A stretch of 64,000 bases of DNA from Patescibacteria group bacterium (GTDB lineage: Bacteria > Patescibacteriota > Patescibacteriia > UBA2196): NCBI GenBank assembly GCA_028748975.1, contig JAQTPI010000005.1:8933-72932 (forward strand), read 5' to 3'. A program made the position numbers and the translations under genes. How positions within the stretch are numbered: the stretch's first letter is position 1; every line of letters starts with the position of its first letter. Of this stretch, positions 7,607-56,095 are shown one piece after another. The notes beneath the pieces were generated by a model that was given only the letters and a program-made list of their open reading frames with translations, was not told where the DNA came from and did not search any database.

Positions 7607-9625
7607 ATTGCGGAAATTATACCAGCGGTAAGATTACCGCGAAATCTGAATTCTTTTAGTTATTTGGTGCCGGCGGAAATGGCTGGTGTTCTTAAGGTTG
7701 GCATGATTGTAGAAGTTGATTTTAGAGGGAGAAAAGTTGACGGACTAATAATAAAAATCAGAAAACAGAAATCAGAAAACAGAAATCAGAAAACAGAAAT
7801 CAGGGAGAAAAATAATTTTAAATTAAAGCCGATTAAGAAAATTGTTTTCCCCACCCCACTCGTTACTTTGGCGCAGATTGATTTGATAAGAAAAATTGCC
7901 AAATATTATGGCGTGTCGGAAGGGGTGGTGTGCCGGTCGTTTTTACCGGCGCTTTCTAAGCGCCTCCTACGAATGTACGAATCCTACGAATATACGAATA
8001 GAACAACTAAAACGAAAAAAGTTAAAATAGTGAACTCACATCTTTTCTGGTGGCAGAACTTAGACGAACGAAATACGGAATATAAAAAAAATATTAATAA
8101 AACCAAAGGGCAGATTTTGATTCTGACGCCGCAGATTGATTTTATTGAGCAATTAATAAAAGATTTAAAATTGGATGAAAAAAAAGTGATTAGAATTCAT
8201 AACGGCATTAAACCCAAAGAGTTTTTTGAGAACTGGTTGAAAATTTTATCGGGCGAGCCAAAAATTATCATTGGCACCAAAATGGCCTTGACACTTTCCT
8301 TCTCTAATTTGAAAACTATTATTATTGACGAGGAGCAGGATTGGAATCATAAACAATCAGATATTAATCCGCGCTATGACGCGCGGATGGTGGCGGAATG
8401 GCTGGCGAGTGCGCACGGAGCGGAGTTGGTTTTGGCGAGCGCGGCGCCGAGGGTGGAGACATATTACGAATTATTGAAATCAGAAAACAGAAAACAGAAA
8501 TCAGGGGATTCTACGAGATCCCTCGGCTCCCCCGAGTACTCGGGGTCGCTCGGGATAAACTTAGTGAATTTACAAGACGAAAAGACCAAAGGCAATTATT
8601 CCCTACTCTCGGATTCACTCAAAGAAAAAATTGAAGAAATATTAAAAACAAATAAAAAAATATTTTTACTGCATAACCGCAAAGGTACCTCGGGTTTTGT
8701 TTCTTGCGCAGACTGCGGTCATGTTTTTTTATGCCCGGAGTGTCAAATTTCTTTGAATTATTTTCAGACGCAAGGAAGATTAAAATGCGGCCATTGCGCG
8801 CATCAAGAAGAAGTTCCGCCGCTTTGTCCGAAATGCAGCGGACCGAAGATTACTTTTAAAGCCAAGGGCGTGGAAGATCTGGCGCTGGAATTAAAAAAGA
8901 TTTTTCCAGAGATAAATATTTTAGCGGCTTTTAAAAATGAAGGTAAAAAAACAGATTTCAGCAAAGCGCAAATTATCGCGGGCACAGAATTCGCCCTAAG
9001 TAAGATTAATTGGGAGGAAATTGGGTTGGCTGCTATTGTTAATTTTGACCAATTGGTAAACCGGCCGGATTTGGGAGCGCAAAAAGGCGCCTATGATTTA
9101 TTAAAATATATTCAGGGTAGATTGCAGGGCGAACTTATTATTCAGGCGCATAATTTGGATAATATAATTTTGAAAAGCATAAAAGAAAATAGGCCGGAAA
9201 TTTTTTATGAAAATGAACTGGAAAACCGCAAAGATCTTAACTATCCCCCGTTTTGCCGTCTGATTAAAATTATTTTTCAAGATAAATCCAAGGCCCGTGC
9301 TTATTATTTAAGCGACCAGTTGGCGCGGGAGATAAAAAAATTACACACTTGTCATTCCGAGCGAGAGCGAGGAATCCCTTATATTTCCCATACAAGAAAG
9401 ACGAAGGGATCCTTCACTTCTCCGCCTGCTGGCGGATTCGTTCAGGATGACAACACAACCGATTGGCAAGTGAATGGTCCGATACCCGCTGTGCCGGAAA
9501 AAATCCGCGGTAATTTTTTCTATCATATTATTGTTAAACTACCGCTGGCGGCGGATTTAAATAAATTATTTAAAATTATTCCGCCGGATTTTGTGGTTGA
9601 CACAGACCCAGAAAAGTTGACGTAA
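7604..9625 (+). CDS. priA: primosomal protein N' (PriA), probably helicase-inactive
   Basis: N-terminal 3'BD, LTPQ motif, Cys-rich zinc region CADCGHVFLCPECQ...CGHCAH...CPKCSG; Walker A (GxGKT) absent, DEEH replaced by DEEQ; several in-frame repeat insertions. Confidence 0.8.
   Translation: MIAEIIPAVRLPRNLNSFSYLVPAEMAGVLKVGMIVEVDFRGRKVDGLIIKIRKQKSENRNQKTEIREKNNFKLKPIKKIVFPTPLVTLAQIDLIRKIAKYYGVSEGVVCRSFLPALSKRLLRMYESYEYTNRTTKTKKVKIVNSHLFWWQNLDERNTEYKKNINKTKGQILILTPQIDFIEQLIKDLKLDEKKVIRIHNGIKPKEFFENWLKILSGEPKIIIGTKMALTLSFSNLKTIIIDEEQDWNHKQSDINPRYDARMVAEWLASAHGAELVLASAAPRVETYYELLKSENRKQKSGDSTRSLGSPEYSGSLGINLVNLQDEKTKGNYSLLSDSLKEKIEEILKTNKKIFLLHNRKGTSGFVSCADCGHVFLCPECQISLNYFQTQGRLKCGHCAHQEEVPPLCPKCSGPKITFKAKGVEDLALELKKIFPEINILAAFKNEGKKTDFSKAQIIAGTEFALSKINWEEIGLAAIVNFDQLVNRPDLGAQKGAYDLLKYIQGRLQGELIIQAHNLDNIILKSIKENRPEIFYENELENRKDLNYPPFCRLIKIIFQDKSKARAYYLSDQLAREIKKLHTCHSERERGIPYISHTRKTKGSFTSPPAGGFVQDDNTTDWQVNGPIPAVPEKIRGNFFYHIIVKLPLAADLNKLFKIIPPDFVVDTDPEKLT
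7751..7802. repeat. in-frame heptamer microsatellite (CAGAAAA/CAGAAAT)n
   Basis: aaaatcagaaaacagaaatcagaaaacagaaatcagaaaacagaaatcagg gives KIRKQKSENRNQKTEIR; second short array 8471-8500. Confidence 0.7.
8515..8570. mobile_element. MITE module (gagatccctcg...cgggataaac) in-frame in priA
   Basis: gagatccctcggctcccccgagtactcggggtcgctcgggataaac encodes RSLGSPEYSGSLGIN. Confidence 0.6.
9350..9452. mobile_element. MITE-like element (family A) in-frame in priA
   Basis: tgtcattccgagcgagagcgaggaatcc...tccgcctgctggcggattcgttcaggatgaca encodes HTCHSERERGIPYISHTRKTKGSFTSPPAGGFVQDDNT. Confidence 0.65.
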
Positions 9626-13184: not shown

Positions 13185-14060
13185 TTAGTATCTCCCTGCC
13201 GAGCCGAACATTTTTATTTTTTCTTCAACTATTTTCTCTATGGCGGCGATGGCTGGTGTCAGCACTTGGCGCGGGTCATAGATTAAAGAATTTTCGTTTA
13301 GAATTTCTCTGACCGCGTTGGTGAAGGCTAGGCGCAGTTCGGTATCAATATTAATGATGCGCACGCCAAGTTCAATCGCCGGCTCAATCTGATTTTTTTT
13401 AATGCCCGAAGCGCCATGCAAAACGATCGGAGTGGCTGGCAAATTATTATGAATTTTTTTCAAGCGCAATAAATCCAAATCGGGCACGCCCACGTCGCGA
13501 AATTTTTTAATGCCATGCATGTTGCCGATGGAAACAGCTAAAGTATCAACGCTGGTTTGGGCTACAAAATCAACCGCTTCTTCCGGGTCGGTGAAAAACG
13601 GCGCCATGTCTTCCGGAGTTTGCGCTTTGTCTTCCACACCGCGCAAAATTCCAAGTTCACCCTGCGCCCAAACGCCGTGTTTATGGGCATAATCAACTGC
13701 TTGTTTGGTTAAAAGAACATTTTCCGAAAAAGGCAGCTCGGAAGCGTCAATGTGGATGGAGGAAAAACCAACACTAATACATTCGGCCACGGAACGAAAA
13801 CTTTTACCATGGTCAAGGTGCAGCGCGATGGGTACTTTTACTTTTTCATCTTTGGCCACGGCTTCCACGATTTGAGTAATGGCTTTCAGACCAGCATATT
13901 CAATAGTGGTTTCGGAAACCTGGATAATGGCCGGGGCGCCGAGTTTGCTCGCGGCGCGCACCACACCCAAGGCCGTTTCCAAATTGAAAATATTAAAAGC
14001 ACCGACGGCATAGCCGTCTTTTTGGGCTTTTTTGATTAGATCTTTGATGTGGACTAACAT
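13185..14060 (-). CDS. fba: class II fructose-bisphosphate aldolase
   Basis: DGYAVGAFN...LHLDHG pattern. Confidence 0.85.
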   Translation of the reverse strand: MLVHIKDLIKKAQKDGYAVGAFNIFNLETALGVVRAASKLGAPAIIQVSETTIEYAGLKAITQIVEAVAKDEKVKVPIALHLDHGKSFRSVAECISVGFSSIHIDASELPFSENVLLTKQAVDYAHKHGVWAQGELGILRGVEDKAQTPEDMAPFFTDPEEAVDFVAQTSVDTLAVSIGNMHGIKKFRDVGVPDLDLLRLKKIHNNLPATPIVLHGASGIKKNQIEPAIELGVRIINIDTELRLAFTNAVREILNENSLIYDPRQVLTPAIAAIEKIVEEKIKMFGSAGRY

Positions 14061-14588: not shown

Positions 14589-15362
14589 TTATTCAGTTTC
14601 TACGGCCCGTATTAATGATAGGAACTTTTCCGCTTTCAAACTAGCGCCGCCGACTAAGGCGCCGTCAATTACTCCCGGTTTAATAAAATCCATAACATTG
14701 CTTTCATCCACGCTGCCGCCGTAAATTATGGAAATATTATTTTTTATAATTTCATGGCTGAAAAATTCCGGCAAAAGACCGCGAATTACGGCAGAGGCGT
14801 GCTGAGCTTCTTTTGGTTCGACGGCTTGGCCTGAACCAATCACCCAGACTGGTTCATAGGCGATGATTAAATTTTGATTATTATTTAATTTAACATCTTG
14901 GAGCGCTTTAGTAATTTGCTGAATTAAAATTAGGTCGGTTTTGCCAATCTGCCTTTCTTCAAAAGTTTCGCCAACACAAAGAATCGGCGTTAAATCATTA
15001 GCCAGACAGACTTTTATTTTTTGATTAATTTCTTCATTGGTTTCTTTTTGATACTGGCGCCGTTCCGAATGGCCGATAATAACATAATCTACGCCCAATT
15101 CTTTCAGTTGGCTGGGCGAGGTTTCACCAGTATAGGCGCCTTTTTCATGATAAAAAACATTCTGCGCGCCGAGTTTTATTTCTGATTTTTTAATAGCTTC
15201 CGCCACCGCTGATAGGGCCGCAAAAGACGGGCATAAAATCAGTTCAATGTTTTGCTTTAATGTTTTAATGCTTTCATGTTTTAATGAGTTCGCCAAATCC
15301 GCCGCTTCTTTATTTGTAAGTTGCATCTTCCAGTTGGCGATAATATAGGTTTTTTTACTCAT
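14589..15362 (-). CDS. tpiA: triosephosphate isomerase
   Basis: ANWKM...GAQN...GETS...IIGHSERR motifs. Confidence 0.9.
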   Translation of the reverse strand: MSKKTYIIANWKMQLTNKEAADLANSLKHESIKTLKQNIELILCPSFAALSAVAEAIKKSEIKLGAQNVFYHEKGAYTGETSPSQLKELGVDYVIIGHSERRQYQKETNEEINQKIKVCLANDLTPILCVGETFEERQIGKTDLILIQQITKALQDVKLNNNQNLIIAYEPVWVIGSGQAVEPKEAQHASAVIRGLLPEFFSHEIIKNNISIIYGGSVDESNVMDFIKPGVIDGALVGGASLKAEKFLSLIRAVETE

Positions 15363-45565: not shown

Positions 45566-47404
45566 TTATCTCTTTAACACCGACAAATATGCTTCCGCCG
45601 GAATATCAACTCTCCCCCGCCCCAGGGCTTTCATTTTTTTCTTGCCTTTTTTCTGTTTGTCCAAAAGTTTGTTTTTGCGCGAAACATCGCCACCGGAAAG
45701 AGTGCCGATGACGTCTTTGCGATACGGCGCCACGCGCGAAGAAGCAATAACTTTGCCGCCTTTTTGCTTGCCAATGTTTTGATAGCCGAGCGTGGCCTGA
45801 ATTTTGATTTCAAACATCTGCTTGGGCAAAGTGTCTTTCAAGGCATCCACGATTTTTCGGCCGACTTCATAGGCCGAATCGCGATAGACAATCGTGGCCA
45901 AAGAATCTATCATTTCATCGGCGACCACAATATCCAATCTTTCCACTTCGCAGGGACGATAACCGATTAAATCATAATTAAGCGAGGCATAGCCGGAAGA
46001 AACGCTTTTTAATTTGTCATAAAAATCAGTCAAAAGCGAGGCCAAGGGCAATTCATAATGCAAATTGAGGCGGTTTTCCGACAAGTAGGTGGTGTTGATG
46101 TAGCTGCCGCGTTTTTCCGCCACGAGCTGCATAATTCCGCCAAGATATTCTTTGGGTGAGATGATGTCAATTCTGACCCAGGGCTCTTCCACCGCGATAT
46201 TTTGCAGATTATTGGGTAGTTCCTGCGGCGAACGAATAATTTTTTCTTTGCCATTTTCAATTAATTTGTAGGCGACGCTTGGTACAGTAACCATCAAATC
46301 CAATTTATGTTCACGGTGCAGGCGTTCCTGAATTATTTCCAAATGCAAAAGACCTAAGAATCCGCAGCGGAAACCCGGGCCGAGCGCCGGCGAATGTTCG
46401 GGCTCAAAACTTAAAGAAGCATCAGTCAGTTTTATTTTTTCCAAGCCCTCGCGCAAATCTTCAAATTCAATTCCTTCTTTGCAAAAAAATCCAGCAAAAA
46501 CCATGGGCTTAATTTCTTTATATCCCGGCAAAGCCAAAGATGAAAAATTTTGGTCTTCTTTATTTTTCGCTAAAGTCACGGTGTCGCCGACACGACAGGA
46601 AGAGAGTTCTTTAAAACCGGTAACAATGTAACCGATTTCACCGGCGCGCAAAATTTCGCTTTTGATTTTTTGCGGTTTGAAATAGCCGACTTCCAGAACT
46701 TCGCTTTCTTTGTTGGTACCCATGAGTAGAATTTGATCGCCGCGTTTGACTTCGCCGTTCAAAAGGCGCACATAGGCCACGACGCCGCGATAATCATCAT
46801 AGACCGAATCAAAAATCAGAGCTTGAAGTGGTTTTTCGTTTTCGCCAATTGGCGCGGGTACGTTTTTTATAATTTGCTCTAATATTTTTTCCACGTTTTC
46901 TCCGGTTTTGCCGGAAACTTTTAAAATTTCAAAATTGTCAGCCAGAGATTCAATAATCACTTCCTTTATTTCTTCCTCGGCTTCAGGCACATTGGCATTA
47001 GGCAAGTCAATTTTATTAATGACTGGGATGATTTTCAGGCCCTGGTCAGTGGCCAGGTGATAATTGGCTAATGTTTGCGCCTGTACGCCTTGGGTGGCAT
47101 CCACGAGCAAAATGGCGCCTTCCACCGCGGCGAGCGAACGGGAAACTTCATAGGTGAAGTCCACATGGCCGGGAGTGTCAATCAAATTTAAAATATATTT
47201 TTGGCCGTCTAATTCATAGTCCATGCGCACCGGTTGTAATTTGATGGTGATGCCCCGCTCGCGCTCCAATTCCATCGTGTCCAAAAGTTGGTTCATCATT
47301 TTTCTTTTTTCCACGGTTTTGGTCAATTCCAAAAAACGGTCAGCCAGAGTTGACTTACCGTGATCAATATGGGCGATGATGCAGAAATTACGGATGTTAT
47401 TCAT
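45566..47404 (-). CDS. lepA: elongation factor 4 (LepA); ORF-track N-terminal extension to 47476 probably artefact of stop-free heptamer repeat
   Basis: AHIDHGKST G1 motif at MNNIRNFCIIAHIDHGKST, full LepA architecture. Confidence 0.9.
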   Translation of the reverse strand: MNNIRNFCIIAHIDHGKSTLADRFLELTKTVEKRKMMNQLLDTMELERERGITIKLQPVRMDYELDGQKYILNLIDTPGHVDFTYEVSRSLAAVEGAILLVDATQGVQAQTLANYHLATDQGLKIIPVINKIDLPNANVPEAEEEIKEVIIESLADNFEILKVSGKTGENVEKILEQIIKNVPAPIGENEKPLQALIFDSVYDDYRGVVAYVRLLNGEVKRGDQILLMGTNKESEVLEVGYFKPQKIKSEILRAGEIGYIVTGFKELSSCRVGDTVTLAKNKEDQNFSSLALPGYKEIKPMVFAGFFCKEGIEFEDLREGLEKIKLTDASLSFEPEHSPALGPGFRCGFLGLLHLEIIQERLHREHKLDLMVTVPSVAYKLIENGKEKIIRSPQELPNNLQNIAVEEPWVRIDIISPKEYLGGIMQLVAEKRGSYINTTYLSENRLNLHYELPLASLLTDFYDKLKSVSSGYASLNYDLIGYRPCEVERLDIVVADEMIDSLATIVYRDSAYEVGRKIVDALKDTLPKQMFEIKIQATLGYQNIGKQKGGKVIASSRVAPYRKDVIGTLSGGDVSRKNKLLDKQKKGKKKMKALGRGRVDIPAEAYLSVLKR

Positions 47405-47509
47405 AAGCTTGAATATAAATAAATTATAGCTAAAATTTCTTAATTTGGCAATTGAAAGGTAATAAGTAATAAGCAACTAGTAATAAGGGGATTGTAAATA
47501 AAAGATAAA

Positions 47510-47540
47510 ACAAAAAACCGCCTTTTTTGGCGGTCTTCTT
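47510..47540 (-). terminator. hairpin terminator (T tract on minus strand)
   Basis: aaaaaaccgccttttttggcggt. Confidence 0.5.
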
Positions 47541-47544
47541 TCTC

Positions 47545-47700
47545 GCCATTTACTGGCGCAGGAATCCAGAGTTTAAAATTAATGTTTTTGAGAAGAGAGA
47601 TTTTGTTTTTTCCCAAGGCGGCGGGCGCCCGAAGGAACCGTGCCGGTGAATGGGAGTTTAATTCTAAACTCGTTTTTTGTTTTCCCGCGCCTGTAAATAA
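47545..47700 (-). ncRNA. candidate small ncRNA, long imperfect hairpin (possibly SRP/4.5S-like); strand uncertain
   Basis: ends pair (ggcgcagg/cgcgcctg; agtttaaaattaa/ttaattctaaact), apical gcgcccgaaggaaccgtgcc resembles SRP domain IV GGAAGGAAGC region; terminator adjacent on minus strand. Confidence 0.3.
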
Positions 47701-47770
47701 TGACAAATAACTGACAACTTATAATATACGACTTATAATTTTCAACTAAAGTATAGCAAAAACAATAAAT

Positions 47771-47810
47771 AGTAACAAGTAATAAGTAATAAGTAACTAG
47801 TAATAAAGAG
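47771..47810. repeat. heptamer tandem repeat (TAAYAAG)n
   Basis: agtaacaagtaataagtaataagtaactagtaataaag. Confidence 0.6.
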
Positions 47811-48921
47811 AAAGTTTGATTAATTTTGCTATAGCAAAATTAATCAAACTTAGTAATTGGGAAAGAAAATAAAAAACGGCCAAGAGTGAGGGACTCCCGA
47901 GCCGCGTGAAACTTTTAAGAAAAATTGCCTTACCGTAAAAAATTTACCTCACCGGAAATGACAATTGTTTCAGTCGTTCCCGGGAGAATTGTTGTCTCTG
48001 TATTGTTTTTTTCTTCAAAAAAATGTATGAGGCGAGTGGACGGGTTAAAATCTATTTGCCCGCTCACCACTCTCCACTCCCTACTTCCAACAGTGACTGT
48101 TCTCAACATGTTTTCCTCCAATCATTCTGAAATTGTAATTGCGGTTCTGATCTTTCCCTCACCTGACTTCCCTTTTCTTTCTAAATCGCGAGTGAACGCG
48201 ATTTTATACGCGAGTTTACGCCAAAAGAAAAAAGGATGCCGGGTGAAGGGCGACGGTGTGACGTCGCTTTGAAAAAAAATGGAAAGGGTGTTTGATATCC
48301 CAAAAGAGATAAATGGCACCAAACACCCTTTCCCCTGTCCCAGCAAATTGTTTTGACGTGCCCAAGACCGGGCCGCTACTGACACTTTGCTGGAGAAGTG
48401 GATTGAAGTCGGGAGAAAATTTACTCCTCACTCGCCTTGATGTCCTTTCGAACAGTCATAGACTAATTGCTTCAACCCCCTCATTTATAATCTTTTGAAA
48501 AATTATAAATGAGGAGGAAGAAAATTTTGGTTTATTTAAATTATTAATTTTATCAGATTATTAGATTATTAACTTGCGCCCGCGGAACTGGAGATTAGCT
48601 TTTGATGCTGCTAGAGAAAGAGCATCAAGAACCATGAAGATTATTGAAACCCCTCGCTTTTAAGCCGTCGTCTGATCTCGCGGTTTAGAGCGGAAGAGAC
48701 CTCTGGGCGATTAGCTTGGAATATGGAATATTGAAGCTAAGGCCACGAGAGCAAACGGCTTAGTAGCAAGGGGGAGCATGGTTTGTTCTGTCTGCCTGTA
48801 TTTTGCCGAAGCAAAATTATGGCAGACCAGCAACTTCGCACGAGGGAAAAATTCAGGTTGCCCCAAATTTTTCCTCTTTGAAACTGCTGGCTAATCTCCA
48901 TGTCGGCGGGGAGATTTTTAT

Positions 48922-49041
48922 CCTCCCCTTTCGAAGGGGAGGTGGGTTGAGCGGAGCGAAACCCGGAGGGGTTGTGTGATTATTTTTACCACAACCACCC
49001 CGCCTCGTTTCACTCGGCACCCCTCCTTCGAAAGGAGGGGA
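48922..49041. mobile_element. paired-hairpin element (family B)
   Basis: cctcccctttcgaaggggagg ... cccctccttcgaaaggagggg. Confidence 0.6.
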
Positions 49042-49104
49042 TATAAAAATCAAAATTTATATTTTTAACGAGCATTTTTCCAATCTCTGGCTTCTACTAG
49101 AGGG

Positions 49105-49192
49105 TGTCATCCTGATCCGCCGGCTGGCGGAGAAGGATCTCGTAGAATTTTTACGAGATTCCTCCCCCGAGTACTCGGGGTTCGGAATGACA
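49105..49192. mobile_element. MITE-like element (family A)
   Basis: gtgtcatcctgatccgccggctggcggagaaggatctcgtag...gattcctcccccgagtactcggggttcggaatgaca. Confidence 0.65.
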
Positions 49193-49267
49193 TTCGTTTG
49201 TAAAACTCATAGATTGAGGGCCGAAACGATTAATGAAATATCATTTCGGCCTGATGTGGTGATTTTA

Positions 49268-49441
49268 CTACGAGGGTAATTCATCCAATGTTTCGTGGTC
49301 CTTCATCTTGCGTAGGTCTTCACGAACCTTGCGCAAGTCTTGGCGGGTCTTTTTGTTTTCGTATGTTACATGACTTACGACTATTATGGAGCACCCACCT
49401 ATGCCCACAAGTAAAAGAACAAGCGGCACTAACATATGCAT
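49268..49441 (-). CDS. small single-TM peptide (57 aa; ORF track 49268..49507)
   Basis: MHMLVPLVLLLVGIGGCSIIVVSHVTYENKKTRQDLRKVREDLRKMKDHETLDELPS; leader ttaaaagatgggggtatgcatATG nearly identical to leader of peptide gene at 52170. Confidence 0.4.
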   Translation of the reverse strand: MHMLVPLVLLLVGIGGCSIIVVSHVTYENKKTRQDLRKVREDLRKMKDHETLDELPS

Positions 49442-49641
49442 ACCCCCATCTTTTAAATGAACTTTTTCCGACCGAGAATCGGCCGGGGAAATTTGGATGG
49501 CCACCAAAAGGAGTATTAACCTTCTTCGGTTATCCTGACCCGGAGGACAGGAGCCTTTGCCTATCCGCCCATCGCGGACATTAGAGGTGTTTCTCCTCTA
49601 ACGGCTGGTGGCCGTTAATTTTTATTTTTCTAAATTATCAA

Positions 49642-49707
49642 TTGAGAAGGCGGGATTCGAACCCGCGACCGCCTGTTCCCCGAGCAGGTGTGCTGACTTA
49701 CTCCCCA
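49642..49707 (-). other. non-canonical tRNA-like element (acceptor plus T-arm, truncated body)
   Basis: minus strand tggggag...gcggg ttcgaat cccgc cttctca a; acceptor pairs with 2 G-U; only 34 nt between acceptor and T-arm, no canonical anticodon arm. Confidence 0.35.
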
Positions 49708-50255
49708 ATCTTTTATTTTTATTTTTCCAAACCATCAATATAAATGTCTGGATTTCCGCCTAAGGTGGAAATGACAAAATTGATAACTTGGAAAAATTGG
49801 GGAAAGCTGATTCTGAGAGGCGTTATGACGCCTAGAATCTCTTTTCCCCAATGCCATTTCTAGGGCTGGCGATACCCTTATTACCCGCATACACGATGGT
49901 ATGCAACTTTGAAGCTCGGGTCGATTGGACCCTGTGAGCCACCCGCGGCAACCGCGGCCAGCTCTTTGCCCGCTTTTTTGTCTGACCTCTGACACGCGAG
50001 CTAATCAGAGGCGGATGTAATGAGAGACGGGAGAAATGGGCGGCTGATCATCGCGGTGTTCATGAAACCCGCGCGGATTTACCGGGCACTTCGCCATCAT
50101 CAACCATTTAAGAACCCAATCCTCAATCACGTCTCTCTCGAAAATGCACCGATGTTGGCAATCACCATCTTTTAGGGACGGGTCAGCCCGTTTGTCTCCA
50201 GAACAATGCCGGAGGACGGGGCTCGTAAAACGAGCGCGAACATTGGCACATTTTG

Positions 50256-50328
50256 TCGGAATGGCAGGATTCGAACCTGCGGCCCCATGCTCCCAAAGCA
50301 TGTGCGCTACCAGCTGCGCTACACTCCG
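50256..50328 (-). tRNA. tRNA-Pro (anticodon TGG)
   Basis: acceptor cggagtg/cattccg (one G-U), D-arm tagcgcagctggtagcgca, anticodon stem catgc/gcatg loop ttTGGga, T-loop ttcgaat. Confidence 0.75.
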
Positions 50329-50342
50329 AATAAATATTTTGT

Positions 50343-50468
50343 TGTCATCCCGAGCGAACAACGACCTCTCTCCATCTCTCCCCTTATTAAGGGGAGAGGG
50401 ACGAACTGTTCCCCTCTCCTTTACAAGGAGAGGGTCGGGGGTGAGGTCGTCACTCAATCGGAATGACA
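50343..50468. mobile_element. composite element (family A ends with family B-like paired hairpins)
   Basis: gtcatcccgagcgaacaacgacc...ctccccttattaaggggagag...cccctctcctttacaaggagaggg...gtcgtcactcaatcggaatgaca. Confidence 0.6.
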
Positions 50469-52056
50469 AAATAATTTATTTTTTTAAACTTCTCTAAGCC
50501 ATCAAATTTTATAAAATTACCTTGATAGCTTGGAAAAATGGCGGAGATATAGAATCGCCGCCGAGAATGACTGTTGTCGTCAACGCATTGGACCTTAAAC
50601 CTTTCACTGTCGGGTGTCCACGGATGTCGCGAATCTCTCAAACTTGAAAAAAAATCGGGTGGCGGTCGCGAGGTTGACCTGGAACCCGCACAAAGGCAGG
50701 CTCGCCACAAAGGGCGCGATCAGCGGAAAGTAGTCGGCATGTCTTAAGCCGCGCTACTATCACCGAATGCGCGCCGCCACCCGGTTCGTGCGAAAGTCCC
50801 CCGCAATTCCCTAAGAACGCCTCGGCGGGTTAATTCCCGAAGGGACTTTCCAGCACGTGCCAGGGTAAAGGACGATGAACCGCCCTGGTTCGGTTTCGGT
50901 GTTCGGCCGGCAGTTGTTGTGCCGAAGCGGCAGGCTGGGAGAAATCGGCGAAATTCCGACTCGTCCGCTACACCCGGCGCTTTTCTCGTTCGGGCCCCCG
51001 GTTTGACGTCCGCGGGGGCAGGTTCAGCCGCACTCACGATGGCGGCTTTTCGATGTGGCCGGCCGAAACACCAGTCACGGACCCGGGAGCTTTCACCCGG
51101 TTCGCTTTTTTCCACACCGGATTGGGCCGGAGGGACGCGGCGATAGGGCGAGGTTGCGGCGAACCGCTGGGGAACCATCCCATAAACCTCTGGTTTTCTC
51201 TCCACATCCTATCGTTAGTGCGTCCGCCCCCAGCCATCCGGTCCGGACAGGCATGTGCAGCGTGGCTCGCGCGGTTTGGGGCTTCAACGCAAGACGCTCC
51301 GCCCCAAATCGCAATCCGTCCAACTGCCCCACGACTGGCGCAGGGACATGCCCGCTGCTTGGCCGCCGTTGTGGCCATCGTACCCGTCCGAATCCGCCCA
51401 CGGCTTTGGCCTAGCTGAAAAGCTTTGGCCCCGATGCCGCGCGCGGAATTTTCACAGGATCTTCAATGTTGGATTCACCAAGTAACGTAGCTGCAAGCGC
51501 CCAGACGCCTGTGCAATCCCGCCAGCTTGGCGATGAGTTTGTTGGCCATGGTATGGCCTCCGTCGACAGAAATTCAAAACTAGGTTTTTCGGCCAACCAC
51601 CCACGGTATTTGGTTGCCGAATACTCTTTTGGCCTTACGCTAATTAATTTTTGCTGCCTCCGTAGAGATAGACAAAATAATTAATTAACGTTAGCGTTTA
51701 CATCCGTGGCGTAGCTGCAATCGGCCCCCCGACTGTGCAATCTCGCCAACAGATTTGTTGCGTGTCTATTGGTTTCGTATGCCCTCCTTTTCGCTTAGGC
51801 GACCCTGGCCCCACGCTGGGTTAGGTCGAGTTAAAGTAAGGATTGGCAAATTTTTTTATTTCCTCCTCTATTTAATAATTTGTTTTCGCCTTAATGGGCG
51901 AGATGTTAAGTATTAAGAAATATTAATACCCAACATGCCGACCACAGTTAATAAAAAACTCAAAACTCAATTAACAAAACTTAAGACTAATTAAGAAATT
52001 GAAATAAGGATCCTTGCCGACCAACTGTGATGGTATATCAGTCGGCAAGGATGTTT

Positions 52057-52170
52057 TTACTTTAGAAGCACCCGAGAAATTTGATCAAGTTGATAGATGA
52101 TGGTAATTAGGGCCACCACAACTAAGCCCATAAAAAACCCTATCATACGTTTCTCTGAGTTTGTCAGCAT
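52057..52170 (-). CDS. small hydrophobic peptide (37 aa), type I toxin-like
   Basis: MLTNSEKRMIGFFMGLVVVALITIIYQLDQISRVLLK; conserved upstream caaggaaaa...ttaaaagcgggggtatgca; hairpin terminator ccttgccgac..gtcggcaagg downstream. Confidence 0.4.
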   Translation of the reverse strand: MLTNSEKRMIGFFMGLVVVALITIIYQLDQISRVLLK

Positions 52171-52302
52171 TGCATACCCCCGCTTTTAAGTGAAAGATAT
52201 TTTTCCTTGTTTCAATTCCCCACTAATTGTGAAATTGAAATAAGGAACCTTGCCGGCTGAAACACTGTGATGTGTTCCGGCTGGCAAGGATTTTGAAGGT
52301 TA

Positions 52303-52467
52303 TTACAAAAGATGCAGCACCTTCATATTGAGTATTGTGATGGCCACGATTATAATCCCAATCAGCACGCCGTTTTTCATTCCTTGGGAGTAACCGTTGG
52401 TGTAACCGTCGTCATATCCCCTGCCGTAACCAATGGAAAGACCTATCCCTAAACCCATAATGACTGA
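52303..52467 (-). CDS. small Gly/Tyr-rich single-TM peptide (55 aa; ORF track 52303..52509)
   Basis: SD aaaaaaggagacaatt then MSVIMGLGIGLSIGYGRGYDDGYTNGYSQGMKNGVLIGIIIVAITILNMKVLHLL; same upstream gggaattgaaacaaggaaaa element and hairpin terminator as neighbour. Confidence 0.45.
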   Translation of the reverse strand, partial: SVIMGLGIGLSIGYGRGYDDGYTNGYSQGMKNGVLIGIIIVAITILNMKVLHLL

Positions 52468-52756
52468 CATAATTGTCTCCTTTTTTATTATGAATTTTCC
52501 TTGTTTCAATTCCCCAATATTTAATTTTAAAGGTCAGCGATTTTTTTCCGTAATACTTAAGTATAGCACAACCACAGAACTTGTCAAGTGGATAACTTAA
52601 ATAAATTCTAAAAAGGCTGTTTTTTGGCTAATTTAAGCCAAAACAAATACCCGAATTAGTACGAATTTTACCCGAATTTATCCGAATATTACGGAATTTT
52701 TAATTTTAACAAAATATTAAAAAATATCAAATTTGGGGATAAGTGGGGATGAAAAA

Positions 52757-52830
52757 GGCGGTCCGATCCGCCAGTTGGCGGATCGGACCGCCTCAAAATA
52801 TATCTTTATATCCTTATATCTTTATTTTTA
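52757..52830. mobile_element. MITE-like element
   Basis: ggtccgatccgccagttggcggatcggaccgcc...tatatccttatatctttat. Confidence 0.5.
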
Positions 52831-52875
52831 GTTTTTGTCTTCCCTTATTACTTAATTACTAGTTACTTATTACTA

Positions 52876-55800
52876 CTATCTCTCCGCCACCACCCCAAAA
52901 TATCCATCTTTTAATAAATCCGCGGAATAAGTAATCACGCTTCCCTCTTCTGCCACGCCAGAGCCGGCGGTGGCCTGAATTTTATAATTGGCTGGCAAAA
53001 TTAGTTCGCTTTGGAAATCAATCGCGTTCATACCAAGTTGTTTATCAACAACCAAACTGTATTTGGCTTCGTCATTTTTTCCAAATAGAGCCGCAAACCA
53101 TTGTTTAATTTTATTATTGCTTTTGGCCGTACCAAACTGGAAAGGCAGTTTATATTTGATGGTGACTGTTTTTTCCTGGCCCGGCGCCACTTGCAGCCAG
53201 TTGCCAAAAACAGTTTTGCCAAATTCAGAAGAAACACGCGTGCCCGTGGCTTCGTCCAAAGAAACATTGGTTTCCACCGCGGCCAAAGTTTTGTCAGCAC
53301 TCATGCCGTCTTGGCTCGCGGAATATTTAAAAAGATAATCCGGATTAAAATTAAAACCGGTGGCGGAAATAAGTTCCGCGCCAGCGGGCACATAGAAACG
53401 GACATAATCAACATTATTGTCGCCTTCAAAAAGTTTACCCAATTCGCCATTATGCTGGCGCGTCAAACTGACGGTCGCGACCATGGCACCGGTTACGTCA
53501 ACTTCAACAGAGTGGCGCACGGTGTTTTTGATAACCGCATCGGTTTTGCCGCCGGAGATATTGGTATGCACGACCATTAAATAATCCTGATTATTTTCAG
53601 TGGCGCGAATCTTACCGGCCCAGCCAAAACGTTCGGCCAAATCTTCCGTATTTTTATCAGAAAAATAGAAAAGAATTTTTTCCTCGCTTAAAGCTTGGCT
53701 TAAGCCGGCGAGTACCGGCAGATAATCCTTGGTGTTTAAATTCATCAGACGCTCCAAAAGCACGGGCGCCATATCCGCGATAATTTCTTTGGGCCGATTT
53801 TTATTCTTGTCATATTCCAATTCCACGGCCGTTTGCATGGCAATGGTAAAATTTTCCGCGCTTAAGGTCTGCTTATATTCTTTCATTTCAATCGGCCCCA
53901 CAATTTTCAATAAATTGGCAACAGTATCTTGAGTTAAGCTGATGATGCCGTCAACCGAAGAACCGCCGTAATTATTCTCATAAAACCAAATTATTTTCTC
54001 GGCACTTGTCGGCCAATTCGGAAACCAGTTGGCATTCCAAATCTGCCAAGCCGGCGAAAAAATCTGCAGTGGCTTCGGCGCGGCCACTAAAACTTGGCTG
54101 CTGCTTTTTAAATCATAAAGGCCGCCGCCGGGAATATCCATTTTTTTGACCCGGCCCTTGTCCACATCCACCACGGCAAAAGAACCCATAAAACCACCGG
54201 TAGGCCTTAGTTCGTTGGAATTTTGGAAAACTACCAAATAACGCTTGGAAGTTTCGGCACCCAAAATATCCTGGCTGAAAAGTAAAATATCTTTGAGGCC
54301 GGCAATGGAGGTTTGCCAGTTTTTGGCGCCAATTTGCAGCGCGGAGAATTTTTCTTGGGCATCACTCGGCAATGAATCTTTGTCAATTTCATTAATCAAG
54401 TTGAGCGCGGCATTGATTTTTGTTTCTTCCGAACCAATGGTCTGGTGCAAAAAAGAAATTTTTTCCGTGAGAGCTGGTTCTGGCGCGTTAAAGACCGAAA
54501 GAGCTTGAGTAATTTTTTGGGCCGAAGCGGAAAGATATTGCCCGGCTGCCAGAAGTTTTTCGCCGTCGCGCGCTTTGGGTACCAGCTTGATTAAAGAATT
54601 AGTCAGAGGCCCCAATTCTTTAATTTGCTTTTGCGCCAGATAAAAAGCACTTTCAGCGCGGCCAAAATTAGCCACGGCGGCAGTGATGTCGTTTTCTGAA
54701 AAATTGCCGGCTGCTTGTTCCAAATAATTCAAACCCTGCGAAGAGGTGCCCAAAACATCGCCTTGAGTTTTTTGAGCCGCGCGCCAAGAATTCCAAACCA
54801 GAAGAGGCAAAACGATAATCAAAGCGGTCAAACCAAAATTAATCAAAGGTTTTAAAGAAAATTTTCTTTCGGCTAAAACCATGGCCGGGGCTTCGCGTTT
54901 TTTAAAAAGATAGCCAATTGACCGGATTAAATAGGAAATATTAAACTTGAAAAGTTTGGTGATTTGCCGAACGACAAAAGTTAGGCCAGCCCAAACTCCT
55001 TTTAGGGTGTGATCGACTACAAAATCCAAAAGGCGAAAGGGCGCGGTTAAGGCCTGCCAGAAAAAATATATAAATTTTCCCAAAAGAGTGAGTGGTAAAT
55101 CAAAAGTCCAATAAAAAAAACCGTGGGTGCGCGGAGTGGCAGGAACAGCGATAAAATTATCGGTGCCGCGCGCCAAGCCGGAAGAAATTAAATCCACTTT
55201 CACTTTTTTTATTTTCTTTTTTTGCTTGTTGATTTTTTTCAAATCGGCTTTCAGAGCCAAGTTGGCGGCGTCTTCCGGCATATCAAAACCCAAAATTTCA
55301 CGAACATGCTTTTGGCGCGTGCTTTGTTTTTCTTCTTCCCAAAGATATTTGACTTCGGACATGGGGGTCAAAGGAGCGGTTTCTGTCGTTTCTTTAATCT
55401 GGTAATCTTTAAATTTGGGCGCGCGCAAATCCACCACATGGGCGGAAGCACGGCGGTTATTTTTGATTTTAAGTTTGGATTCTTGAGGCAAATCCACCAA
55501 GGGTTCGGCTGTGACTGGAAAGATATAATTTTCCGGCAATTCACTTGGCAATTCGGAAATATTTATTTTTGCCTTGAATTCCTGCCAGGTCATTTGCGGC
55601 AGAACTTTATTATCTTTTTCTATTTCTTCCATTTTATTTTCAATTTCCGGCAATTTTTTTTCTATTTTTTCATCATTTTCCGCCAGACTGATTAAAACTC
55701 GCGGCAGAGAGATGTCCATGACAAAATTTTTGTGCGGACGGCCGCGCGCGCCTTTTTTGGGCGCGTATTTCAAAAGCCACTCTTCTTGAGGCGAGAGAAC

Positions 55801-56004
55801 TTTGTGCGGACGGCCGCGTTCACGTTTTTCCATTTTGGCCAAAGCCGCCAATTCTTCCGGCGTCCATTCTTTCTTGGGCCGGCCACGCGGTCTTTTTGGC
55901 TTATTTTGCAACGCCAAAAGCTCGTCCGCTGTGAAGACTTTACGAGGTCTACCACGTTTTTTCTTTTCCGTGAACTGTGAATTTTTTATGGTATTTTCTG
56001 ACAT
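52876..56004 (-). CDS. large membrane protein: N-terminal AT-hook repeats, TM region, DUF4012-like extracytoplasmic domain
   Basis: four GRP-core AT-hook-like motifs (KRGRPRK, RGRPKK, RGRPHK x2) in first 90 aa; hydrophobic segments; C-terminal region with LRPTGGFMGSF motif; 1042 aa. Confidence 0.65.
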   Translation of the reverse strand: MSENTIKNSQFTEKKKRGRPRKVFTADELLALQNKPKRPRGRPKKEWTPEELAALAKMEKRERGRPHKVLSPQEEWLLKYAPKKGARGRPHKNFVMDISLPRVLISLAENDEKIEKKLPEIENKMEEIEKDNKVLPQMTWQEFKAKINISELPSELPENYIFPVTAEPLVDLPQESKLKIKNNRRASAHVVDLRAPKFKDYQIKETTETAPLTPMSEVKYLWEEEKQSTRQKHVREILGFDMPEDAANLALKADLKKINKQKKKIKKVKVDLISSGLARGTDNFIAVPATPRTHGFFYWTFDLPLTLLGKFIYFFWQALTAPFRLLDFVVDHTLKGVWAGLTFVVRQITKLFKFNISYLIRSIGYLFKKREAPAMVLAERKFSLKPLINFGLTALIIVLPLLVWNSWRAAQKTQGDVLGTSSQGLNYLEQAAGNFSENDITAAVANFGRAESAFYLAQKQIKELGPLTNSLIKLVPKARDGEKLLAAGQYLSASAQKITQALSVFNAPEPALTEKISFLHQTIGSEETKINAALNLINEIDKDSLPSDAQEKFSALQIGAKNWQTSIAGLKDILLFSQDILGAETSKRYLVVFQNSNELRPTGGFMGSFAVVDVDKGRVKKMDIPGGGLYDLKSSSQVLVAAPKPLQIFSPAWQIWNANWFPNWPTSAEKIIWFYENNYGGSSVDGIISLTQDTVANLLKIVGPIEMKEYKQTLSAENFTIAMQTAVELEYDKNKNRPKEIIADMAPVLLERLMNLNTKDYLPVLAGLSQALSEEKILFYFSDKNTEDLAERFGWAGKIRATENNQDYLMVVHTNISGGKTDAVIKNTVRHSVEVDVTGAMVATVSLTRQHNGELGKLFEGDNNVDYVRFYVPAGAELISATGFNFNPDYLFKYSASQDGMSADKTLAAVETNVSLDEATGTRVSSEFGKTVFGNWLQVAPGQEKTVTIKYKLPFQFGTAKSNNKIKQWFAALFGKNDEAKYSLVVDKQLGMNAIDFQSELILPANYKIQATAGSGVAEEGSVITYSADLLKDGYFGVVAER

Positions 56005-56020
56005 TTATCTATATATTATG

Positions 56021-56095
56021 CCCGCCTCGCGTCGACTTGCCCGCTTCGCTAAATCGAGGCGAGCGTCTGACGCGAGTCGAGGCGGGCGAATTACT
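56021..56095. repeat. GC-rich palindromic element (family C) directly upstream of large membrane protein start
   Basis: gcccgcctcgcgtcgacttgcccgcttcgctaaatcgaggcgagcgtctgacgcgagtcgaggcgggcgaatt; homolog of 18578-18652. Confidence 0.6.

Follow-up and report, generated by a model that had tools for sequence, protein, structure and literature searches.

Known type I toxin–antitoxin loci and the locus studied here

Convergent loci such as fst/RNA II (par, pAD1) and the Bacillus pairs txpA/RatA and bsrG/SR4 produce a toxin RNA and an antitoxin RNA that run towards each other and share a bidirectional terminator. Ordinary small membrane proteins, among them AcrZ, KdpF, CydX and MgtS of Escherichia coli, have 30–60 amino acids (aa) and one helix, are often unannotated and are usually encoded within operons or by genes with simple untranslated regions (UTRs). 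The closed full-length hok mRNA, held together by the tac/fbi 5′–3′ stem, is translationally inert until its 3′ end is trimmed (PMC9841398), and in the aapA1/IsoA1 system of Helicobacter pylori the full-length transcript folds in a way that impedes translation and requires 3′ processing (PMC5416894). T1TAdb describes type I toxin mRNAs by a 5′–3′ long-distance interaction, a 3′ stem-loop and sequestration of the ribosome-binding site (RBS) (PMC8594479). Here we analyse three small peptide genes in a 64,000-nucleotide (nt) stretch of a Patescibacteria (candidate phyla radiation) genome of ~41% G+C (GCA_028748975.1, contig JAQTPI010000005.1, forward-strand positions 8,933 to 72,932; 'the window', to which all coordinates refer unless assigned to a relative). 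An earlier note on this DNA had read them as a type I toxin–antitoxin locus. That reading stood with respect to the hydrophobic peptides and the cis architecture of two of the mRNAs and fell short in that neither an RNA antitoxin nor any similarity to toxin families was found. Judging from sequence comparison and predicted folds, we lean towards regarding all three as genuine small membrane-peptide genes, two of them carried in self-closing, probably translation-limiting mRNAs.

Three small membrane-peptide genes

The open reading frames (ORFs) all lie on the minus strand within a 5.4-kb gap (47477–52875) that holds no credible long ORF and is flanked by lepA (45566–47476) and a gene for a DUF4012 protein (52876–56004):

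49268–49441, minus strand: ORF1, 57 aa if read from the first ATG, but probably 55 aa with a start at the second
52057–52170, minus strand: ORF2, 37 aa, MLTNSEKRMIGFFMGLVVVALITIIYQLDQISRVLLK, RBS GGGGG 6–7 nt upstream
52303–52470, minus strand: ORF3, 55 aa, MSVIMGLGIGLSIGYGRGYDDGYTNGYSQGMKNGVLIGIIIVAITILNMKVLHLL, RBS AAGGAG 7 nt upstream

These places are those given earlier, except that an end of ORF3 at 52467 omitted its ATG; the corrected span agrees with a 168-nt gene called in independent assemblies, in which ORF2 is likewise called as a gene. The probable start of ORF1 is the second ATG (49433–49435), because its GGGGG RBS lies 7 nt before this codon and only 1 nt before the first. Each peptide does contain the hydrophobic helix ascribed to it, as one 19-residue stretch (maximal Kyte–Doolittle means 2.76, 2.37 and 2.41). 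In ORF1 the membrane helix is N-terminal and is followed by a charged tail, RQDLRKVREDLRKMKDH, and in ORF3 it is C-terminal and preceded by a Gly/Tyr-repeat part. With 37, 55 and 55–57 aa, the peptides have the size and the helix of type I toxins, which are hydrophobic and usually shorter than 60 aa.

All three ORFs have a properly spaced RBS and ATG. On a codon log-odds score trained on 33 long genes of the window, ORF1, ORF2 and ORF3 reached 0.20, 0.172 and 0.225, respectively, compared to 0.27 ± 0.11 for pieces of real genes and −0.05 ± 0.13 (95th percentile, 0.16) for spurious ORFs of similar length, and the annotated frame scored best of six for each.

The genes had also been taken for tandem paralogues, but the peptides of ORF1, ORF2 and ORF3 have no detectable mutual similarity and are not one protein family; what the genes have in common is the surrounding RNA or DNA sequence, not the peptide. 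No family was assigned by Pfam, NCBIfam, PHROGs or PADLOC to any of five peptides (ORF1–ORF3 and two ORFs of the relative introduced below), and peptide clusters at 90% identity contained the same sequence only. For ORF3, a word-indexed protein search for homologs was empty, and an exhaustive phmmer search against 1.84 billion representatives returned only Gly/Tyr-repeat stretches of long proteins and no orthologs.

A shared RNA frame around unrelated peptides

ORF2 and ORF3 are each embedded in a cassette with the order 5′ arm (GGGGAAUUGAAACAAGGAA), leader with RBS, ORF, hairpin CCUUGCC...GGCAAGG and 3′ arm (UUCCUUAUUUCAAUUUC):

52495–52517, minus strand: cassette 3 5′ arm, UUGGGGAAUUGAAACAAGGAA, paired with the 3′ arm in the minimum-energy fold
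52248–52289, minus strand: cassette 3 3′ hairpin, CCUUGCC...GGCAAGG, homologous to 13690–13755 of the relative L011
52226–52247, minus strand: cassette 3 3′ arm, UUCCUUAUUUCAAUUUCACAAU, complementary to the 5′ arm
52201–52223, minus strand: cassette 2 5′ arm, duplex z-score −5.0
52012–52050, minus strand: cassette 2 3′ hairpin, with a T-run on both strands
51991–52011, minus strand: cassette 2 3′ arm, pairing with the 5′ arm by fold and by duplex score

One informative relative was available, L011 (identical in sequence to L025), whose DUF4012 protein is 54% identical to that of the window. Its gap is collinear, 4 kb long and alignable in blocks with the window across the whole gap. It holds one cassette, whose arms and hairpin are those of cassettes 2 and 3 but whose ORF is a different, two-helix one of 67 aa, together with a two-hairpin GGAGG block, a ~0.9-kb GC-rich non-coding block, a tRNA-like junction and an ortholog of ORF1 that has the same leader and 3′ hairpin as ORF1.

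An upstream element previously reported for two of the genes proved exact: GGGGAATTGAAACAAGGAAAA is identical at 21 of 21 positions in 52201–52221 and 52495–52515, giving two copies against none expected in 64 kb, the portion of the genome available for copy counts. The hairpin base and tail that follow ORF2 and ORF3, GGCAAGGnTCCTTATTTCAATTTC, likewise occur twice against an expectation of zero, and a repeat spanning them (D10) has 91% identity across 34 nt. A near-identical hairpin had been claimed for all three genes; it is present after ORF2 and ORF3, whereas that of ORF1 is unrelated. The claim of a near-identical leader in two ORFs was borne out by TTAAAAGnnGGGGGTATGCA, common to ORF1 and ORF2; allowing three mismatches, only 2 of 100 shuffled sequences contained a second match. 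Before the RBS, each of the five ORFs has GGAAAAnGUUCAUUnAAAA in its leader, and an orphan copy lacking an ORF occupies a syntenic place in the window and in L011. The leader and first codons of ORF3 also resemble the leader of the L011 ortholog of ORF1 (E = 4e-4).

In the minimum-energy folds of the three cassettes (2, 3 and that of L011), the arms pair to form a ~19-bp helix that stacks on the hairpin and closes the ORF. The arm duplexes have energies of −19 to −21 kcal/mol with z-scores of −4.8, −5.0 and −6.0, and no more than 1 in 1,000 shuffles attained any of them; that of cassette 3 (−19.5 kcal/mol, z = −4.8) was reached by one. Direct comparison of the folds of the window and L011 arms revealed two pairs changed on both sides (U-A to C-G and G-C to A-U), and a C·A mismatch in the helix is retained in all three cassettes. 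The upstream element had been regarded as a possible target of an antisense RNA; because the 5′ and 3′ arms are complementary, it pairs instead in cis with the 3′ flank of its own cassette. In their predicted folds, cassettes 2, 3 and that of L011 thus contain the cis elements listed by T1TAdb, although occlusion of the RBS is only partial (unpaired probability 0.27 for ORF2 and 0.58 for ORF3).

One RNA frame therefore encloses the unrelated peptides of ORF2, ORF3 and the 67-aa ORF of L011, and the same arrangement would be seen if the cassettes were non-coding structured RNAs or repeat elements in which ORF2 and ORF3 are fortuitous frames. Pointing in this direction are the conservation of flanks around unrelated ORFs, the fact that homologs of ORF2, ORF3 and the L011 67-aa peptide were not found, and the richness of the whole gap in structured RNA (elements A and B, GC-rich blocks and tRNA-like elements, described below). 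We nevertheless hold a non-coding origin to be decidedly improbable: all three cassettes carry an RBS, an ATG and an open frame of 37–67 codons for membrane helices in AT-rich DNA, and the codon scores lie above the 95th percentile of spurious ORFs, with the annotated frame the best of six.

The inverted arms of 17–21 nt that bound units of 230–350 bp, the near-identical ends of the two tandem units and the dispersed hairpin repeats in the surrounding DNA could alternatively mark remnants of small mobile elements, either a miniature inverted-repeat transposable element (MITE) or a gene-cassette array, with the arms as terminal inverted repeats. A MITE was the alternative named by the earlier note; within 64 kb, however, the shared elements of the peptide cassettes (arms, hairpin tail and leader) were not encountered outside this locus, and the dispersed hairpin repeats that adjoin them are unrelated. 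A syntenic cassette is present in L011, at 54% identity of the neighbouring protein, with arms that have diverged yet remained complementary. No target-site duplication could be read on the flanks in the window or L011, the ends of the element not being independently defined, and there is no ORF of transposase or integrase length, all open stretches of at least 100 residues lying in GC-rich non-coding DNA. Viral contigs, scanned with the hairpin tail and the ORF1 leader, gave zero matches, and BLAST of 48900–52900 against phages and plasmids matched only the tRNA-Pro gene. Taken together, a mobile origin appears highly improbable. By eye, neither GTTRRRY core sites nor an integrase-sized ORF of an integron-type cassette was seen in the gap. 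A phage lysis cassette with a holin was also rejected, as PHROGs matches were weak (the best, at E = 0.0011, being to a functionally uncharacterised family), and the gap has no credible endolysin gene because its only ORFs above 100 aa are in GC-rich DNA without codon periodicity.

Several observations weigh against small membrane-peptide genes in self-closing mRNAs. As ORF2, ORF3 and the L011 67-aa ORF have no detectable homologs, codon statistics and RBSs carry the entire case for their translation. Gating is not evident for ORF3, since its RBS is predicted to be mostly accessible (0.58 unpaired), and the covariation of the arms involves two to three sequences because there is one informative relative. 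The complementary arms could equally be explained as inverted repeats at the DNA level, and the pattern of wobbles and mismatches is undecided as to the RNA strand, with cassette 2 favouring the sense and the L011 cassette the antisense strand.

ORF1 is conserved as a protein

ORF1 lies outside the self-closing frame of cassettes 2 and 3 and is accompanied by elements of its own:

49442–49498, minus strand: ORF1 leader, comprising UUUCCCC, a hairpin, AAAAAGUUCAUUUAAAAGAU and the RBS GGGGG
49219–49251, minus strand: ORF1 3′ hairpin, GGCCGAAA...TTTCGGCC, with the conserved tail CCCUCAAUCUAUGAGUUU
49499–49613, minus strand: tRNA-like four-way junction with an 8-bp closing helix, directly 5′ of the ORF1 leader

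Its ortholog occupies the syntenic place in L011 (14935–15147; BLASTP E = 1e-4), and both proteins contain the membrane helix together with the motif R-x-[DE]-L-R-x-x-R-E-D-L-R. Different codons encode 13 of the 19 identical residues, showing that selection acts on the protein. Nucleotide identity is 45% between the coding sequences, compared to 77–88% between the leaders (L011 14851–14929) and 78–80% across the 3′ hairpin and its tail (L011 15151–15208). As judged from this alignment, ORF1 is under purifying selection at the protein level, and its UTRs are conserved more strongly still. The leader contains the hairpin CCGGCCG-AUUCU-CGGUCGG (49468–49486), and the mean unpaired probability of the RBS in the predicted fold is 0.23. 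No significant 5′–3′ pairing of ORF1 was found in the duplex shuffle test; pairing of the RBS with CCCUC of the conserved 3′ tail was considered and discarded (z = −1.5 and −1.1).

The four-way junction folds at −54.5 kcal/mol (z = −4.7), and its L011 counterpart (14775–14872) has the same architecture (z = −3.9) with a T-arm-like hairpin, GAGGGGUUCGACUCCCUC. In size, in their single helix and in the conservation of ORF1 at the protein level, the peptides resemble ordinary small membrane proteins, but to our knowledge a ~19-bp helix that closes the message and is kept by compensatory changes, as around ORF2 and ORF3, is unusual for the genes of such proteins.

Promoters and the search for an RNA antitoxin

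The peptide cluster has a single strong promoter:

52560–52587, minus strand: near-consensus sigma-70 promoter, TTGACA-N16-TGcTATACT, ~80 nt upstream of ORF3

It scores 11 of 12 and has a TG extension. The same promoter is present in L011 at 13304–13332 (TTGACA-N17-TGcTATACT), within a block in which window positions 52588–52534 align to L011 13303–13357. The 5′ arm itself was dismissed as a promoter on inspection, its TTGAAA hexamer having no conserved −10 partner in the three cassettes.

A search for antisense promoter and terminator pairs, which the earlier note had suggested as a check, covered both strands of the window and of L011 and found none conserved between the two genomes. Promoter-like sites number 13 in the window, against 7.4 ± 3.4 expected; those in antisense orientation occur near chance frequency and in non-homologous sequence, and two of them lie inside ORF3 (52328–52356, 10 of 12) and inside the 67-aa ORF of L011 (13666–13639). 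A duplex scan of the gap for a trans-encoded complementary RNA returned only the trivial opposite strand. Up to E = 10, no match to toxin families (Hok/Gef, Ldr, Fst, TisB, Ibs, ShoB and others) was obtained in Pfam or NCBIfam.

These results bear on whether the locus is a complete type I system, in which membrane toxins would be made from closed, inert mRNAs and an unrecognised antisense or nearby small RNA would block the opened form. The small hydrophobic peptides occur in several adjacent copies, and the 5′–3′ helix and 3′ stem-loop around ORF2 and ORF3 are descriptors of type I mRNAs (PMC8594479) that function likewise in hok (PMC9841398) and aapA1 (PMC5416894). Further points in its favour are UTRs that are better conserved than the coding sequences, the T-runs on both strands of the ORF2 hairpin, as in convergent toxin and antitoxin pairs, and the antisense promoter-like sites inside ORF3 and the L011 67-aa ORF. 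However, the number of promoter-like matches and the location of the antisense ones in non-homologous sequence argue against a conserved antisense gene. The charged motif of ORF1, kept by selection on the protein, would suit a protein that acts on a specific partner better than a peptide that forms pores. Synteny and vertical inheritance of the locus count in the same direction, and in the literature searched no paper mentions type I toxins together with Patescibacteria. We regard a complete type I system as possible but doubtful, because the defining partner is missing, no toxin family matches and there is no sign of a mobile element or phage.

The resemblance to hok/sok consists of a small hydrophobic ORF inside a 5′–3′ long-distance helix with a stable 3′ stem-loop, both predicted here. 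There is, however, no Sok-like antisense gene, mok-like overlapping frame or similarity to the Hok sequence, the predicted long-distance helix does not itself sequester the RBS, and the genome is that of a member of the Patescibacteria rather than an enterobacterial plasmid or chromosome. With aapA1/IsoA1 the locus shares a chromosomal small-peptide gene, a full-length mRNA of similar closed architecture (as predicted) and a family recognised through conserved mRNA structure and not through peptide sequence; it differs in that scans of the window and L011 found no equivalent conserved promoter and in that its peptides are longer (37–57 aa versus 30 aa) and unrelated. The cassette 2 hairpin could be a bidirectional terminator, since a T-run follows on both strands, and this feature and the conserved flanks recall fst/RNA II, txpA/RatA and bsrG/SR4. 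In contrast to those pairs, no promoter for a convergent RNA was found, and the hairpins of ORF3 and the L011 cassette have weak T-runs on the opposite strand.

Other RNAs and repeats in the gap

The remaining mapped features of the gap include two of tRNA type and a block shared with L011:

50255–50328: tRNA-Pro gene, 614 nt from the tRNA-like gene
49642–49707, minus strand: tRNA-Pro(GGG)-like gene, upstream of the four-way junction, lacking the D arm, Rfam tRNA score 32 bits
51859–51950, minus strand: conserved pair of small hairpins with GGAGG behind them, where the GC-rich non-coding block begins

The description of a non-coding region near tRNAs is therefore apt: the tRNA-Pro gene and the tRNA-like gene are both within the gap free of long ORFs. 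In the tRNA-like gene, position 33 is C and the acceptor stem, UGGGGAG/CUUCUCA, includes G3·U70; its sequence matches the 3′ half of tRNA-Pro at 78% identity. Its Rfam score barely exceeds the threshold, and ARAGORN did not call the gene. Rfam searches of this gap and that of L011, at gathering and permissive thresholds, returned only tRNAs and chance matches to microRNAs or hairpins, with no RNase P RNA, transfer-messenger RNA, signal recognition particle RNA, 6S RNA, riboswitch, intron or large-ornate-RNA family.

The two-hairpin block is 79–80% identical to L011 13775–13868, and pairing in both hairpins is maintained by compensatory changes between the genomes (GTATTAA/TTAATAC versus GTGTTAA/TTAACAC and TCGCC/GGCGA versus TCGTC/GACGA). 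Two GC-rich blocks (49800–50250 and 50545–51850) have ~57% G+C compared to 41% for the genome, and probably belong to the minus strand. Their full-length folds beat those of shuffled sequences, most clearly on the minus strand (z = −4.3 for the larger block, versus −2.2 on the opposite strand). L011 has a GC-rich block at the same place that cannot be aligned with that of the window. Coding or pseudogene DNA was rejected as an explanation, as there is no codon-position periodicity in GC and the longest ORF matches itself only. The larger block contains an internal repeat of 39 nt (51486–51524 and 51710–51748, 82% identical).

Two further elements lie on the lepA side of the cluster. Element A (48579–48910, minus strand) is a structured RNA of ~240–330 nt closed by AUGGAGAUUAGC / GCUAAUCUCCAG. 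It is kept in L011, L001 and L002 with compensatory changes in 9 of 43 predicted pairs, its apparent ORF is broken in L001, and it has no Rfam family. Element B (47507–47698, minus strand) contains an invariant 16-mer, CAAAATCTCTCTTCTC, in seven of seven relatives (DUF4012 43–54% identical) in the same DUF4012–lepA gap. It ends in an intrinsic terminator (47539–47512) directly 5′ of lepA and is a candidate lepA leader or small RNA, likewise with no Rfam family.

A 59-aa non-hydrophobic ORF, MLRTVTVGSREW... (47933–48109, minus strand), is preceded on the same strand by a structured stretch (48122–48460; sliding-window z down to −8.8), possibly serving as a leader or riboswitch-like element. For this 59-aa peptide and for a 63-aa peptide, the protein collection contains no exact sequence. 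The motif TTGATAnnTTGGAAAAAT occurs four times within 900 nt, at 49624–49641 and 49721–49738 on the minus strand and at 49780–49797 and 50522–50539 on the plus strand. Each copy abuts a hairpin or a tRNA-like gene, and the motif, which is absent from L011, could be a promoter element or, reversed, a terminator tail. Dispersed hairpin repeats are found at 48915–49047, 49107–49191, 50344–50467 and elsewhere, as well as in relatives, and short-read contigs break there. In the window, GTCATTCCGA... has 18 copies versus 3.2 expected and CCCCTCCTT...AAGGAGGGG has 8 versus 0.

The DUF4012 protein that flanks the gap has 1,042 aa, and the annotations of related proteins name Patescibacteria, Kuenenbacteria or Moranbacteria. 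In distant relatives (35–44% DUF4012 identity) the gap is ~0.6–1 kb long and holds two conserved RNA-like elements but no peptides, and in relatives at 84%, 71% and 66% identity the contigs end or diverge within ~650 nt past the DUF4012 stop, before the cassettes. Comparative sequence data suggest that the island between the DUF4012 gene and lepA is probably lineage specific, RNA rich and vertically inherited. Over most of 49165–56049 the window is matched at 100% identity by four Logan contigs, which were assembled from three sequencing runs, so the odd composition of the gap is not an assembly artefact; a chimeric assembly is ruled out by the identity of these four independent contigs across the AT-rich/GC-rich junctions. 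In L025, at positions 13955–14005, the ENA contig k141_884164 runs into Illumina adapter (AGATCG..AAGAGCACACGTCTGAACTCCAGTCAC), which makes its final ~50 bases non-genomic.

A model for expression and its implications

Under our preferred reading of the ORFs as membrane-peptide genes in self-closing mRNAs, transcription would start at the promoter at 52587–52560 and proceed leftwards on the minus strand. ORF3 and ORF2 would each be carried in a self-closing mRNA module, in which pairing of the 5′ arm with the 3′ arm located directly behind the long hairpin would place the ORF inside a three-way junction. We infer that the closed form protects both RNA ends and limits ribosome access, a state that would last until the 3′ arm is trimmed away or the helix comes apart. 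ORF1 would be a separate, protein-conserved gene with its own leader hairpin and a tRNA-like four-way junction in front, and this junction (49499–49613) might be where RNase P or an RNase Z-type activity cuts to free the ORF1 message from a longer precursor.

A bolder proposal is that the gap is an RNA island whose portable self-closing scaffold has captured unrelated membrane peptides. These would be the first toxins of type I character in the candidate phyla radiation and would be controlled by an RNA of the island itself. Candidates for the controlling RNA are the ~1-kb GC-rich RNA located after the cassettes in the window and in L011, or element A, with the messages marked off by tRNA-like processing signals. 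We consider this proposal unlikely. In the literature searched, no type I toxin–antitoxin system is described for the candidate phyla radiation, and accounts of gene control at the RNA level are nearly absent. The Patescibacteria have tiny genomes and are mostly uncultured and host dependent.

All three ORFs merit annotation as genes. If the peptides are RNA-gated toxins, this control logic would extend to a very distant bacterial branch and would add peptide families that are invisible to homology searches. Even if they are harmless, the locus would provide a conserved self-closing mRNA module with interchangeable small ORFs and a tRNA-like junction placed before ORF1. With several unclassified structured RNAs in one 5-kb gap, it may offer a compact site for the study of RNA processing and small proteins.

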